IMG/VR virus record: IMGVR_UViG_2711768013_000010
Length of the DNA stretch: 43,729 nt
Strand: one strand, 5' to 3'
Source: a virus
Taxonomy: Duplodnaviria > Heunggongvirae > Uroviricota > Caudoviricetes
Part shown: piece by piece, positions 4,036 through 43,729 of the stretch
How the letters are laid out: the number at the start of each line of letters is the position of its first letter
Position numbering within the stretch: the first letter of the stretch is position 1
Position numbers and translations under genes: made by a program
The notes under the pieces: generated by a model
Seen by the model: the letters and a program-made list of their open reading frames with translations, nothing else
Told to the model about the DNA's origin: nothing
Databases searched by the model: none

Positions 4036-4616
4036 TAAGCGTGCAGCAAGAACCGTATTGACGGGAATGTGTTATTCAGTCGGCAGTGCTACGCGCCAGG
4101 GGAGCAGTTCGCCGACCCGGTTTATCGGCCAGTCGGCTATGACGTCAAGGACATAGCGGAGGTAGCTTTCTGGCTCCACTCCGTTCAGTTTGCACGTCCC
4201 GATCAGGCTGTACAGCAGCGCTCCCCGCTCTCCTCCATGATCCGAACCGAAGAACAGGTAGTTTTTGCGGCCCAGACTGACCATCCGCAACGCATTTTCA
4301 GCGATGTTATTGTCCGCCTCAGCCCAGCCATCATCTGCATAGTACGTCAGCGCCGGCCACTGGTTCAGGGCATATGCGAACGCTTTCGCCAGTTCTGAGT
4401 GTCGCGACAGGGTTTTCATCTTTTCACGCAGCCAGCTTTCCAGGGATTTCAGCAGCGGTTTCGTTTTCAACTGACGTTCGGCAAGGCGCTGTTTCAGCAG
4501 GAAGATGTCGTCAGAAGAGATGTCGTTCATAAGCCCGTATTTTACCGGGCTTATTCTGTGACAACCAGGATAAAGAGATTTACAGCATGGTCAGGGAGGT
4601 CAGCAGCCGCTTAGGC
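4036..4616. mobile_element. IS66-family insertion sequence, right-end fragment (putative terminal inverted repeat + transposase 3' part)
   Basis: GTAAGCGTGCAGC.. at ~4036, the typical start of IS66-family terminal repeats; contains the TnpC C-terminal fragment; joined at ~4617 to the Mu-like prophage right end. Confidence 0.6.
4072..4530 (-). pseudogene. IS66-family transposase (TnpC/orf3), C-terminal fragment
   Basis: 152-aa ORF recognised as the C-terminal region of IS66 transposases; an in-frame stop at ~4582 upstream and no N-terminal ~330 aa anywhere in the window. Confidence 0.7.
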
Positions 4617-4637
4617 TGTCTATAGCGCGGCGATTTT

Positions 4638-4703
4638 TTTGATACCGATTTGCATTTCATTTGATACCGCTGAAAAACGCCGATACGCAACTTATTTGAT
4701 ACT
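4638..4703. repeat. right-end transposase-binding-site candidates: three copies of TTTGATAC(C/T)
   Basis: TTTGATACCG at ~4638 and ~4660, TTTGATACT at ~4695; mirrored by three inverted copies at the left end (42944..43099). Confidence 0.55.
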
Positions 4704-4748
4704 AAATCGGCGCTTTTCTTTTGAGTTTTAGAATGAGTTTTTAAGCGT

Positions 4749-5486
4749 TCATTCACTCTCTTTCAAACCAGTTTTAACTGTTTGTGGTTTTGGGTAAGGC
4801 TGGACTTTGAATAGCTTTGTGTTAAGGCGTTTTCTGGCTCTCTTGTCCAGAAACCGGATGTAACGAAACTGACGGAATTTATGAACACTGGCTCTGTCGA
4901 TATTAGCCCGCAGATGTTCACCTCGCTGTCCTCCTCGTTTGATTGCATTCTTGCAAATCTCGTGATACCACTCGCCATCAAGTTCATAGAATGTTGTTTC
5001 ATGACTGCCTACATAATCAAAATTGCTTGCCTGGTACACGACACCAAGACAGCCACAACGCTCATCTGCAAACGACTGAACCCACTGCACCTGCGGATAA
5101 AGTTGTCTGATTAGTTTGAGCGCGTAACTGATTGCCCTTGATTCGGAGTTTCTCGGCATACAGTCATGCAGCCATAACCGGTTAAGCTCCATATATTCGC
5201 GGTTCTGCGTGCCAGTTACGACGCGTGCACCATTGTTTGGATTAAGGGCATAACCCCATTGCATTACGCCAACCAGCTCCCGTTCTGAAAATATGCCCAG
5301 ATGAAGGTAGGAATTATTTACGAAACGATGGCTGTAATGTTTATTGACGACGACCAGCCGGGCCAGCCAGCAACTTATTGTCTCAACCCGTAACTCACGG
5401 GAGCCATAACCGACGATATTGTCGTTATAGTGAATAAGTTCAGGCGTGCTGATGATACGGGATGTAACTTGCTTTCTGTTCCCCAC
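4749..5486 (-). CDS. mom: Mom-like DNA modification protein (anti-restriction adenine modification), start uncertain
   Basis: Large ORF 4749..5681 immediately downstream of and overlapping a Com-like zinc-finger gene, at the right end of a Mu-like prophage exactly where mom sits in Mu; start placed at an in-frame GTG (~5486). Call rests on position and the com partner. Confidence 0.6.
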
Positions 5487-5640
5487 GACAGGATTTCCTT
5501 GTGTATGTGGGGTGCTCTGTGGCGCTCTGAGATGTGATTTGATTGAGGGTTTTACAGCGCGGACATTTAACTTCCAGATAACTGAAGCTGGCTCGTGCCA
5601 GTAGCTTGTTACAATGTCGGCACCGTATGTTTCGATACAT
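5440..5640 (-). CDS. com: Com-like zinc-finger translational activator of mom
   Basis: ..[26 protein letters not shown].. matches the C-x2-C..C-x2-C zinc-finger pattern and flanking residues I recall for Mu Com; ORF 5440..5685, start probably the internal Met (MYRNIRC). Confidence 0.7.
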
Positions 5641-5685
5641 GGCCGCATAACCTCCTGCTTTGTTGTTGATATCTTTATCACTCAA

Positions 5686-5775
5686 TCGATCGACAAAAAC
5701 GATCGATTTGATTTATTTAATTGATACAACAAATAACACGAAATGTCATTAGCGAAAATTTATGAGTTTGATCAC
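5686..5775. promoter_or_regulatory. GATC (Dam-site) cluster upstream of com-mom: candidate methylation-sensitive operator/promoter region
   Basis: Two CGATCG motifs 13 bp apart (~5688, ~5701) and a third GATC (~5770) in an AT-rich region just upstream of com; in Mu the mom promoter is controlled by three upstream GATC sites and OxyR. Confidence 0.4.
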
Positions 5776-5896
5776 TAATTTTAAACGGTGCTGTAACGCA
5801 TAAGTGCTGAATGATTGTACATTTGAATACCGCAAAGCAAACAAATCAACTAATTTATAGAAGTCAATTGGTTAATTGCCAGCGTAAGAGGCTGCT

Positions 5897-6190
5897 ATGG
5901 ACAATCATGTAACGACGAGAAATCGAAAAATGATTGAAAATGCGGAAATCTATAATGATTATTTTTCCGATTATTCAGATGCCTGCAAATACAGTTCGAG
6001 TGCGGGAGAGTTCATATGCTTCAACTTTTTTATTAAATCTTATGTTTTTCCTCCACAGCAAGAAGATGGAGGTGTGCCACCTCCTGAAATCACTTTGCAC
6101 CGTATAGCCTCCGTCTCAATGATGGAGCAACAGGCTAATGAGCTGTATAGCATTCTGGGAACGATTCTACAAAAGCGTGAATCGGACTAA
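5897..6190 (+). CDS. hypothetical protein (opposite-strand, AT-rich; candidate moron)
   Basis: 97-aa ORF preceded by a good Shine-Dalgarno (AAGAGG, ~7 nt upstream) and -10-like TATAGA; low GC relative to the phage backbone; no recognisable domain. Confidence 0.45.
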   Translation: MDNHVTTRNRKMIENAEIYNDYFSDYSDACKYSSSAGEFICFNFFIKSYVFPPQQEDGGVPPPEITLHRIASVSMMEQQANELYSILGTILQKRESD

Positions 6191-42139: not shown

Positions 42140-42168
42140 GATTCATCTATCCTAAAAAGTTACGAAAT

Positions 42169-42192
42169 TTGATAACTAAACTTAGTTATCAA
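42169..42192. promoter_or_regulatory. operator candidate: 11-bp perfect inverted repeat TTGATAACTAA-AC-TTAGTTATCAA in the ner-c intergenic region
   Basis: Palindrome read directly from the sequence; a second inverted pair ATTGATCCAC..GTGGATCAAT (~42207 and ~42262) lies nearby. Confidence 0.45.
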
Positions 42193-42324
42193 GTTTGATA
42201 TAAGTATTGATCCACTTCTGCTTCATGTAAAGCAAAAAAAACATCTTTCTTTTGTCTATTGTGGATCAATGGTTGCTGACAACACTAAAAGTTAATAATT
42301 TCAAATTGATAGGAAGAAAAGAAA

Positions 42325-42870
42325 ATGAACAAGCAAACAACAACATCTCTTTCTTTTCCTGGTGGTAGAAAAGAAAGCATTGCTGAGCGTCTGAAAAGGC
42401 TGATTGGCTCCCGCAGCGTCAGAGCTGCAGCAAGAGATTGGGGGCTTTCATTTTCAACACTAAACAATTATCTGTCTCGTGGCACTGAGCCATCCTTAAG
42501 TGTCGCCCTTCAGATTGCGTCTATCGAAGGAGTAAGTGTTGAGTGGCTATGTGGATTCAGTGATGCATCACAAGTGAATCGGTGTGAGATCAAGGAAAAT
42601 CAAGATGAAAGCAAGAAGATAATTATGACGATTATCAGCGCACTTGATGAAAAAGACTTAGAGCAGCTATCGAAAAATTTGGTTCTGAATGGAGCCAAGT
42701 ACTTAGCTCGGTTGTTAGAGCCTGAAAATCAAGATCTAATCCGCTTAGAAGGAAGGAAAAGAATAGCTGCATTACAGCTTGAAGGTATGTCTGACGAACG
42801 CGTCAGAGAGATTTTGGAAGAAACTGAGAGAAGTCGCAAATCTAACGCGGTAGAACCAAAAGCGGGTTAA
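42325..42870 (+). CDS. prophage repressor (Mu c-like, HTH DNA-binding)
   Basis: 181-aa ORF with N-terminal HTH (LSFSTLNNYLSRGTEPSLSVALQIASIEGVSVEWL), divergent from ner and adjacent to the left end. Confidence 0.75.
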   Translation: MNKQTTTSLSFPGGRKESIAERLKRLIGSRSVRAAARDWGLSFSTLNNYLSRGTEPSLSVALQIASIEGVSVEWLCGFSDASQVNRCEIKENQDESKKIIMTIISALDEKDLEQLSKNLVLNGAKYLARLLEPENQDLIRLEGRKRIAALQLEGMSDERVREILEETERSRKSNAVEPKAG

Positions 42871-42943
42871 TAGCATTAGCCCGCATTTTGCACTATATCG
42901 AGTATTTCGCATTGTTTGGAACGCCTTAAAAGACTAAAACCAC

Positions 42944-43099
42944 AGTATCAAATGAGTTGCCGATTTTATAATAAATGACTAATTATTGCACAATCGGTAT
43001 CAAATAGACCTTATCCGCACATCTAGCCATCACCTGTTTTATTTCAGTATCTTACAGGTGATTTCACCTCCTTTCACTAAACCCCTTGTCGGTATCAAA
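42944..43099. repeat. left-end transposase-binding-site candidates: three inverted copies of TTTGATAC(C/T)
   Basis: AGTATCAAA (~42944), CGGTATCAAA (~42995), CGGTATCAAA (~43090) on the plus strand. Confidence 0.55.
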
Positions 43100-43103
43100 T
43101 GAT

Positions 43104-43427
43104 TCACCTGGTTATATGTCGCCAGTCGATACCTTCCAGCAGCATCGCCAGCTGCGCCTGTGTAAGGAACACTTTGCCATCACGGGCTGACGGCCAGGCG
43201 AAGCGCCCACGCTCCAGCCGTTTGGTCAGGAGGCACAGTCCGTCACTGGTGGACCACAGCAGTTTAACCTGACTGCCGCTGCGGCCCCGGAAAATGAAAA
43301 CATGGCCGGACATGGGATCGTCTTTCAGCGCCGTCTGTACTTTCGCAGCCAGGCCGTTGAAGCCATTTCTCATATCGGTGATACCGGCAACCAGCCAAAT
43401 TTTGATCCCGGAAGGTAACGGGATCAT
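43104..43427 (-). CDS. IS66-family accessory protein TnpB (orf2)
   Basis: 107-aa ORF MIPLPSGIKIWLVAGITDMRNGFNGLAAKVQ.. recognised as IS66 orf2; C-terminus probably altered at the junction. Confidence 0.85.
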   Translation of the reverse strand: MIPLPSGIKIWLVAGITDMRNGFNGLAAKVQTALKDDPMSGHVFIFRGRSGSQVKLLWSTSDGLCLLTKRLERGRFAWPSARDGKVFLTQAQLAMLLEGIDWRHITR

Positions 43428-43729
43428 CGCTTCAGTTCCTGTATCAGCAGAGTCAGGAGCTTTTCGCTGACATTGCCATTGAAGCGGAGCGTCCCGTGCC
43501 GGAACGTTACCTCACAGCTGATACTGAGGGTTTTCGGGTCCTCTGCGAGCGATTCTGGCTGTTCGGCAGCTGCATCGAGAGTCACAGGAAGTAGCTGGGG
43601 GCTCTCTGAAGAAGGTAATAGCTGAGGTGTACTGGCAATAGCGGACACTACCATTTGTTCTTTTTTTAAGCAGCCATCTGATGATATTTTTCCCTGAAGG
43701 CTGCCGGGGAGATATTCCCCAGACGAGAG
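43107..43729. mobile_element. IS66-family insertion sequence, left part (orf1/orf2), continues beyond window
   Basis: Two overlapping minus-strand ORFs of IS66 orf1/orf2 type; transposase orf3 is missing downstream and replaced by the Mu-like prophage left end. Confidence 0.7.
43424..43729 (-). CDS. IS66-family accessory protein TnpA (orf1), 5' end beyond window
   Basis: ORF overlaps orf2 start by 4 nt; frame is open upstream to the window edge. Confidence 0.6.
   Translation of the reverse strand, partial: LSSGEYLPGSLQGKISSDGCLKKEQMVVSAIASTPQLLPSSESPQLLPVTLDAAAEQPESLAEDPKTLSISCEVTFRHGTLRFNGNVSEKLLTLLIQELKR

Follow-up and report, generated by a model that had tools for sequence, protein, structure and literature searches.

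The stretch of DNA analysed here, 43,729 nucleotides filed as IMG/VR record IMGVR_UViG_2711768013_000010 and referred to below as the window, carries ssrA, a tail-fibre gene without its start, and two pieces of an insertion sequence (IS) of the IS66 family on either side of a Mu-like prophage, which raises the question of whether these elements are nested one within another. An earlier note, made from the letters alone, had proposed a three-level nest, in which the tail-fibre gene of an ssrA-linked prophage received an IS66 copy, a Mu-like phage then transposed into the IS66 transposase gene, and the rest of the resident prophage lay just past the left end of the IS66. Comparison with related genomes indicates, with a probability of roughly 0.85, that the window, a scaffolded Shigella sonnei draft, records a succession of ordinary mobile-element events stacked at one locus and not three levels of clean nesting. 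The inner level of the proposal stands, the Mu-like prophage lying in one IS66 copy, but the outer level, an IS66 within the tail-fibre gene of an ssrA-linked prophage, does not.

The DNA is part of the S. sonnei chromosome, as judged from the source names of two encoded proteins, a fusion of TnpB to Mu sequence (TnpB::Mu) and a shortened TnpC (mini-TnpC), both recorded under S. sonnei, and from the flanking genes, which on the left run in the order yfjF-ratA-smpB-ssrA. The S. sonnei genome is famous for its expansion of insertion sequences, and every component of the locus is of a known kind (an IS66-family element, IS600, ISSso6, IS4, and a Mu-like prophage of the type of Sp18), the structure being ordinary for Shigella. 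The main value of the analysis is one of correction: what appears to be three elements set one within another resolves into separate, ordinary events that have accumulated at one locus. A reading that has only the letters to go by can be led astray by IS copies and by paralogous tail modules of prophages.

The Mu-like prophage and its IS66 host copy

The DNA that separates the two IS66 pieces is a complete Mu-like prophage with recognisable ends, as the earlier note had it. Its genes comprise the repressor, ner, MuA, MuB, kil, gam, mor, lysis genes, the Mu portal and gpT head genes, sheath, tube, tape measure and baseplate genes, a tail fibre with its assembly gene, a gin-like invertase, a gene with SASA and DUF6645 domains, com, and mom. 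A MuA-type transposase and a MuB ATPase thus stand beside repressor and ner at one end, Mu-type late genes occur together with gin and com/mom, and the annotation of collinear Escherichia coli copies agrees. The prophage is collinear with these other copies at 97-99.7% identity, except for its invertible segment, which has the opposite orientation in loci L033 and L006. All Mu proteins within 10 kb of the mom end are also found in the E. coli copies, and a look-up of the 58-aa open reading frame (ORF) that spans the Mu junction returned no protein record. Scanned for an exact copy of the boundary between Mu and IS66, a collection of species-representative genomes gave no match. Insertions of the same phage occupy many unrelated chromosomal sites, with different flanking genes in dozens of genomes, and the ends of the prophage were fixed by comparison with six other loci that carry such insertions. 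The motif TTTGATAC(C/T) stands three times at each end in inverted orientation, in the terminal 85 bp or so on the mom side and in roughly the last 175 bp on the repressor side, with only one further occurrence in the whole window; these putative transposase-binding motifs at both ends fit a Mu-like element.

The IS66 pieces were compared with an intact 2,442-bp element carried on pAA plasmids of E. coli O104:H4 (L010 1339-3780). Window positions 4035-4493 correspond to L010 1339-1797 (98.9% identity) and 4476-4620 to L010 2860-3004 (98.6%), and 43117-43622 is 99.6% identical to, and collinear with, the L010 region 3001-3506. This alignment, which had been suggested earlier as a check, confirms that the pieces are collinear parts of one copy, with tnpA, tnpB and tnpC in order on one strand and with matches to the Pfam families TnpB_IS66, DDE_Tnp_IS66 and DDE_Tnp_IS66_C. 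The plasmid element, whose relatives carry the NCBI labels ISEc22/ISEc8 family (one member of the cluster being named ISSfl4 ORF3), has this same gene order and matches the three window pieces at 98.6-99.6% identity, and its repeats carry the GTAAGCG tip that the window copy shows at its right-hand end. Unlike it, the window copy has lost 1,080 bp of tnpC and is interrupted in tnpB by Mu and in tnpA by IS600; outside the window, 9 nt are missing from the outer edge of its left repeat.

The insertion site itself was found empty. Mu-free S. sonnei genomes (L016, L020, and L025) align on both sides of the prophage, window position 4620 corresponding to L016 9911 and 43117 to L016 9914, and they read TGTC once where the window reads it on each side of Mu; at this position the IS66 is unbroken in many S. 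sonnei genomes. The comparison with genomes lacking Mu that the earlier note called for thus yielded an exact empty site. The two pieces might instead be separate IS66 copies brought together by Mu or by a Mu-mediated rearrangement, as the right-hand piece best matches copies annotated as ISEc22 (99.6%) whereas identity to ISEc22 falls to 75-84% in the tnpA-tnpB piece. However, the intact plasmid element matches both pieces collinearly, and in Mu-free S. sonnei the pieces are contiguous and share exactly the four duplicated base pairs, which refutes this reading and leaves it practically without a chance. By collinearity, target duplication, and empty site alike, Mu sits in one IS66 copy.

Mu did not, however, enter the transposase gene, as the earlier note had it. 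The insertion lies in the 3' end of tnpB, whose last 41 nt, stop codon included, are found on the far side of Mu, and TnpB, 115 aa in the reference, has become a 107-aa fusion ending in Mu sequence. The truncation of the transposase is a separate and older deletion, by which tnpC lost 1,080 bp (360 codons) in frame, with its junction at 4476-4493, between 18-bp direct repeats (GTTCGGCaAGGCGCTGTT, i.e. GTTCGGC(A/C)AGGCGCTGTT). The native start (4530) and the first 18 codons are fused in frame to the last 134 codons; the transposase had been described as a C-terminal fragment only, which is right for the C-terminal domain but not as a simple fragment. An intact DDE transposase (TnpC, about 513 aa) is not present, most of the DDE domain being gone from the 152-aa product. 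The mini-TnpC (Q3YYZ0_SHISS) occurs on 674 contigs, strain Ss046 among them, and the TnpB::Mu fusion on 108; as Mu-free genomes also carry the deletion, it is older than the Mu insertion. In the annotation of Ss046 the mini-TnpC is described as a protein encoded within an IS. The placement of IS66 orf1 and orf2 at 43104..43729 likewise stands for orf2, but orf1 covers only 43424-43622, and the remainder belongs to IS600.

The two ends of the IS66 copy

At the right-hand end, the tail-fibre frame runs straight into the IS66 right repeat (IRR), the feature from which the idea of a nest arose. The tail-fibre ORF does lack a native start, as had been noted, since homology to intact genes stops at 4034. 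Intact homologues measure 422 or 423 aa, and exactly 27 N-terminal codons are absent from the window ORF; the 423-aa homologue of E. coli CFSAN029787 shows 98.7% DNA identity over 2302-4034, its similarity ending at 4034. The GTAAGCG tip of an IS66-type repeat follows directly, starting at 4035 (about 4036 in the earlier estimate). Among 5,426 complete E. coli genomes, none spanned the junction between tail fibre and IS66, and none covered at least 80% of the query.

The left-hand end lies outside the window and was reached by a look-up of the TnpB::Mu fusion, which led to CP176614.1 (L003), a complete chromosome that matches window 33103-43729 at 99.99% identity and continues for another 9.7 kb. 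IS600, a 1,264-bp copy with a 3-bp duplication that is 99.4% identical to the annotated IS600 and has 107 bp inside the window, is followed there by the 5' part of tnpA (resuming at L003 8274-8541), the IS66 left repeat (IRL), and a full ISSso6 (IS110 family). Beyond ISSso6 come a Tn3-type transposase fragment (recognised by eye from its reading frame), an IS3-family copy, and plasmid-type genes, including DUF6404, a colicin E1-type immunity gene, and a replication initiator. Neither comparator prophage matched any part of this 9.7-kb extension, and no tail fibre was found in it. Where the missing N-terminal part of the tail-fibre gene had been expected past 43729, the extension thus holds ISSso6, the Tn3-type fragment, and plasmid-like DNA, the very outcome that the earlier note had named as telling against its proposal.

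The ends of the element themselves agree with this result. In CP176614.1 the left repeat starts CAGCCTG, without its outer nine bases GTAAGCGTA, and is intact in L002 and L010. The sequence beside the IRR is TGTTTACC, and on the other side stand ISSso6 and then the Tn3-type fragment (AAACAAAA). Elements of the IS66 family leave an 8-bp target duplication at both ends; none was seen here, the 8 bp beside the two ends being unrelated. An insertion of IS66 into the tail-fibre gene is therefore not sustained, as only the IRR side is tail fibre and the truncated IRL abuts ISSso6. Because the other IS66 end faces unrelated plasmid-like DNA, the element marks an old rearrangement or deletion junction rather than a simple insertion.

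The position of ISSso6 is an observation in its own right. ISSso6 adjoins an IS66-family repeat at a distance of exactly 9 nt from its tip in two unrelated contexts, in S. sonnei (L003 6752-8283) and in E. coli C311 (L014), where the abutted repeat is ISEc43-like. The left end of ISSso6, GTAAGGCA, resembles the IS66 tip, and it was considered as the missing tip itself; it was rejected, as every ISSso6 copy has these bases whatever its flank. The placement may reflect insertion targeted to the repeat, and IS4321/IS5075 are known for insertion targeted to the ends of Tn21. This repeated placement at a fixed position in IS66-family repeats may deserve a specialist's look.

Two tail modules and the apparent linkage to ssrA

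S. sonnei carries two near-identical paralogous tail-fibre/DUF4376 modules, copy A at ssrA and copy B beside an ipaH effector gene. Each of the 24 long S. sonnei contigs read for copy A (loci L026-L032 among them) has an intact tail-fibre gene (422 aa) with tail-assembly and baseplate genes ahead of it. In copy B, the IS66-truncated tail-fibre gene is followed by DUF4376, ipaH, a resolvase gene, murR, tadA, mltF, and purL, at every listed place that reaches past DUF4376 (L016 12439-14250 and neighbours), except in strain 53G, where a Mu-like prophage breaks up the tail fibre. The standard S. sonnei layout (e.g. 53G, HE616528.1) shares with the window the island, ISSso6, the IS66 copy with its deleted tnpC and its IS600, and the truncated tail fibre, with 100% identity over 2549-4620 and 43117-43729, but it has no Mu in tnpB, and its tail module continues to ipaH, not to ssrA.

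Compared with copy A (L027), the window shows no differences over 1-3901 and 35 over 3902-4034; compared with copy B (L016), it shows none over 2549-4620 and 15 mismatches, all of them within 2276-2548. These mismatch maps prove the window, as assembled, to be an A/B mosaic whose switch point lies somewhere in the 1,353 bp over which the two copies do not differ. The junction-proximal 133 bp, the 5' end of the tail-fibre gene, are of the copy-B type, and the ssrA-linked copy is intact elsewhere, so the truncated tail fibre had been wrongly assigned to the ssrA-linked prophage. On these maps the IS66 junction belongs to copy B and did not originate in the ssrA-linked prophage. The nest as first drawn had real features in its favour, namely the tail-fibre frame running into the IS66 repeat, a Mu that truly lies inside one IS66 copy, and an ssrA gene only 2 kb away in the window. 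However, with no tail-fibre or prophage DNA beyond the window, a truncated left repeat against ISSso6 with differing flanking 8-mers, an intact fibre in every ssrA-linked copy read, a junction identical to the ipaH-linked copy, and Mu in tnpB rather than tnpC, it is highly improbable.

The join to ssrA is a question of its own. As the switch from A to B lies within an exact 1,353-bp repeat, the join is either homologous recombination or an assembly chimera, two routes that we weigh almost equally, with a slight lean to the chimera; the repeat is a ready substrate for inversion as well as for assembly error. The window is a scaffolded draft. Where it has 96 N (9682-9777), all close relatives have 233 bp, so the length of the gap is not that of the DNA it replaces, and both window edges lie about 100 bp within IS copies, an IS4 (1-98) and an IS600 (43623-43729, 107 bp).

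These features of the draft, together with a switch confined to DNA in which copies A and B do not differ, speak for an assembly artefact, in which case the real neighbours would be the copy-B DUF4376 and ipaH. The arrangement of the window was found in none of the complete genomes listed, the island of CP176614.1 lies at the coordinate and in the orientation of Mu-free genomes, and a look-up of the copy-A DUF4376 gave seven places covering all 24 contigs, none of them window-like. Most Mu-bearing draft contigs are 20-50 kb long, yet only seven blocks with the copy-A DUF4376 occur on contigs of that size; conversely, these roughly seven blocks suggest that several assemblies follow the same path. 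Short-read assemblers, moreover, usually break rather than mis-join at an exact repeat of 1.35 kb, and Shigella genomes often undergo inversion between inverted repeats (PMC8072062). We give the artefact about an even chance.

A real join, produced in one part of the Mu-bearing lineage by RecA-type recombination between the two modules, stands a little below even odds; an inversion of the intervening segment would be its simplest form and would have carried the IS66::Mu junction to ssrA. Such a join would account for the sharp, one-sided mismatch clusters of the mosaic and for the same contig path that appears, from the size classes, in several assemblies, and it accords with the frequent inversions and high rearrangement rates reported for Shigella genomes (PMC8072062). 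Against it, the reciprocal product was not observed, although no search was aimed at it, the sole complete genome with this Mu insertion (CP176614.1) appears to keep the standard layout, and the window is a draft. A deletion between copies A and B was also considered and rejected, as it would remove tadA and purL, both beside copy B; tadA is essential. The link to ssrA thus depends on a scaffolded draft at a point where it crosses an exact repeat of 1.35 kb, and it is untrustworthy without long reads.

Collectively, the stack of events would have built up as follows. The starting point is the two paralogous tail modules seen in S. sonnei, A (at ssrA, intact) and B (at ipaH). The copy-B tail-fibre gene, without its first 27 codons, then came to abut the IS66 right repeat at what is now an old junction, probably through insertion followed by deletion or through recombination between IS66 copies. 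The IS66 had decayed before Mu arrived, losing 360 tnpC codons by recombination between the 18-bp repeats and, further, receiving IS600 in tnpA and ISSso6 against its left repeat, an order read from Mu-free genomes. In a sublineage, a complete Sp18-type Mu-like phage next entered the 3' end of tnpB, duplicating TGTC, as the empty site records. Finally, ssrA and the copy-A part of DUF4376 were joined to copy B through the shared 1,353 bp, in the cell or in the assembly.

Several points weigh against so simple a history. The Mu-bearing draft contig L004, 100% identical to window 33104-43622, has an intact tnpA and no IS600, and its IS66 left end, truncated at the same point, has IS1 two bases away (L004 1-360); it misfits a simple linear order of events. 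IS600 may be polymorphic in the Mu-bearing lineage, or this contig may follow another IS66 copy by way of a shared repeat or assembly path. In addition, the route that brought IS66 beside the tail fibre is one that we infer, and whether ipaH or ssrA lies beside the truncated tail fibre in CP176614.1 is read indirectly, from the coordinate and orientation of the island.

The Sp18-type lineage and neighbouring features

The ends of the prophage depart from those of Mu. A 4-bp target duplication accompanies all six independent insertions, which are represented by seven loci with both flanks (the window, L006, L007, L008, L040, and L045/L046); the duplicated targets are TGTC (window), CGTC, GTAC, CGAA, GGAG, and ACTG. 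The fifth base agrees with the flank only at the chance rate over the six insertions. The mom end reads ...GCTATA, ending in TA-3', at all seven loci, and the repressor end reads TGTAACC in four independent insertions and TATAACC in the window and L006, both ends of the window copy terminating in TA-3'. The prophage thus has neither 5'-TG...CA-3' termini nor a 5-bp or 6-bp duplication. A 5-bp duplication with one mutated base, or ends shifted by one base, was considered and set aside, as the extra base is constant (A or T) and matches the flank at chance.

Mu makes 5-bp and B3 makes 6-bp duplications, and TG-CA ends were conserved in all Mu/B3-like phages described until a 2021 survey (PMC8705779). 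A limited literature search found no description of a 4-bp duplication in the Sp18-type lineage. That the Sp18-type phages of E. coli and Shigella have a 4-bp stagger with a TA-3' mom end, and that this is both correct and not yet described, is a tentative suggestion that we consider rather unlikely. If true, a 4-bp cut would depart from both hallmarks of the Mu/B3-like phages and would imply another active-site spacing in an otherwise Mu-like transpososome; 4-bp duplications in a widespread enterobacterial Mu-like lineage may deserve a specialist's look.

In other respects the prophage resembles Mu and Sp18 of E. coli O157:H7 Sakai. It shares with them the order of repressor/ner/A/B, gam, mor, lysis, portal, and gpT head genes, the sheath-tube-baseplate tail, the invertible tail-fibre segment with gin, com/mom, a length of about 38.5 kb, multiple transposase-site repeats (putative here) at both ends, and many unrelated insertion sites. 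The O157 copies are about 95-96% identical to it at the mom end, and Mu, D108, and SfMu gave no nucleotide match among the top matches of a phage collection search. In contrast to Mu, with its 5-bp duplication, the window prophage has a 4-bp duplication, the TA-3' mom end, and the SASA/DUF6645 gene. To our knowledge phage Mu has no counterpart of this gene, an accessory that may serve surface-polysaccharide modification (SASA being sialate O-acetylesterase-like).

The best match in the phage collection was to LC727895 and LC727881, Mu-like inserts in Stx-converting prophages (92% identity over about 90% of 18700-43116). They share with the window the same Mu-like phage nested in another mobile element, but their host element is a lambdoid Stx prophage and not an insertion sequence; earlier records thus already show this phage lying within other mobile elements. 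In strain 53G, another Mu-like variant (176-aa repressor, 696-aa transposase) lies in the copy-B tail-fibre gene itself, at L019 about 11124-11127 (window-equivalent 3406/3407), about 0.6 kb from IS66. Two independent Mu-like insertions have thus occurred in the same small region in different S. sonnei lineages. The coordinates of the features are collected in Table 1.

Table 1. Features of the window, in order of position.
Feature	Position	Strand	Evidence or remark
End of IS4-family copy	1..98		E. coli homology begins only at 99; left edge of window
smpB	1014..1496	+	PF01668 SmpB, E = 1.5e-57
ssrA (tmRNA), tag ANDENYALAA	1711..2073	+	ARAGORN
DUF4376 gene, final gene of prophage remnant	2272..2895	-	PF14301; 3' part (2276-2548) of copy-A type
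Stretch of 1,353 bp identical in copies A and B	2549..3901		A-to-B switch somewhere inside
Tail-fibre gene without first 27 codons	2846..4034 (ORF 2846-4018)	-	PF08400 phage_tail_N, profile positions 28-131 only
Right-hand IS66 part	4035..4620	-	IRR from 4035 (GTAAGCGTGCAGC...), deleted tnpC, 49-nt spacer, last 41 nt of tnpB (4580-4620)
Mini-tnpC, 152 aa	4072..4530	-	Pfam: C-terminal part of DDE_Tnp_IS66, and DDE_Tnp_IS66_C
Left target duplication, TGTC	4617..4620		Intact IS66 (L010) reads GGCTGTCGCC once
Mu-like (Sp18-type) prophage, 38,496 bp as assembled	4621..43116	-	mom end 4621, repressor end 43116
mom	4749..5486	-	PF25680 Mom, E = 1.6e-77
com	about 5440-5640		Overlapping upstream of mom; Zn_ribbon_Com seen in relatives
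SASA/DUF6645 gene, 684 aa	6975-9029		Between gin and mom
gin-like invertase	9115..9687	-	PF00239 Resolvase and HTH_7; first codons lost in N gap; 190 aa in relatives
Run of 96 N	9682..9777		Edge of invertible G-like segment (about 9.7-10.8 kb), start of gin-like gene
MuB-type ATPase	38804..39745	-	PF09077 Phage-MuB_C and AAA_22
MuA-type transposase	39819..41906	-	PF09299 Mu-transpos_C and PF02316 HTH_Tnp_Mu_1
ner-like gene	about 41909-42139	-	HTH_35
Repressor (HTH_3 type)	42325..42870	+	
Right target duplication, TGTC	43117..43120		Empty site L016 9911-9914
tnpB (orf2), 5' 311 nt	43117..43427	-	PF05717 TnpB_IS66; ORF 43104-43427 reads into Mu end
tnpA (orf1), 3' 199 nt only	43424..43622	-	Collinear with L010
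End of IS600 copy (IS3 family), inserted in tnpA	43623..43729		Full copy in L003

At the left edge of the window, S. sonnei L027 aligns through positions 1-98, with an ORF matching Nterm_IS4 and DDE_Tnp_1 directly adjoining. In this genome (L027 12770-14436) yfjF is followed by IS4 and then by raiA-pheA-tyrA-aroF, unlike the E. coli comparator L005, in which bamE-recN-nadK-grpE come after yfjF. Judged by gene order, the join of yfjF and IS4 just left of the window is evidently another IS-bounded rearrangement.

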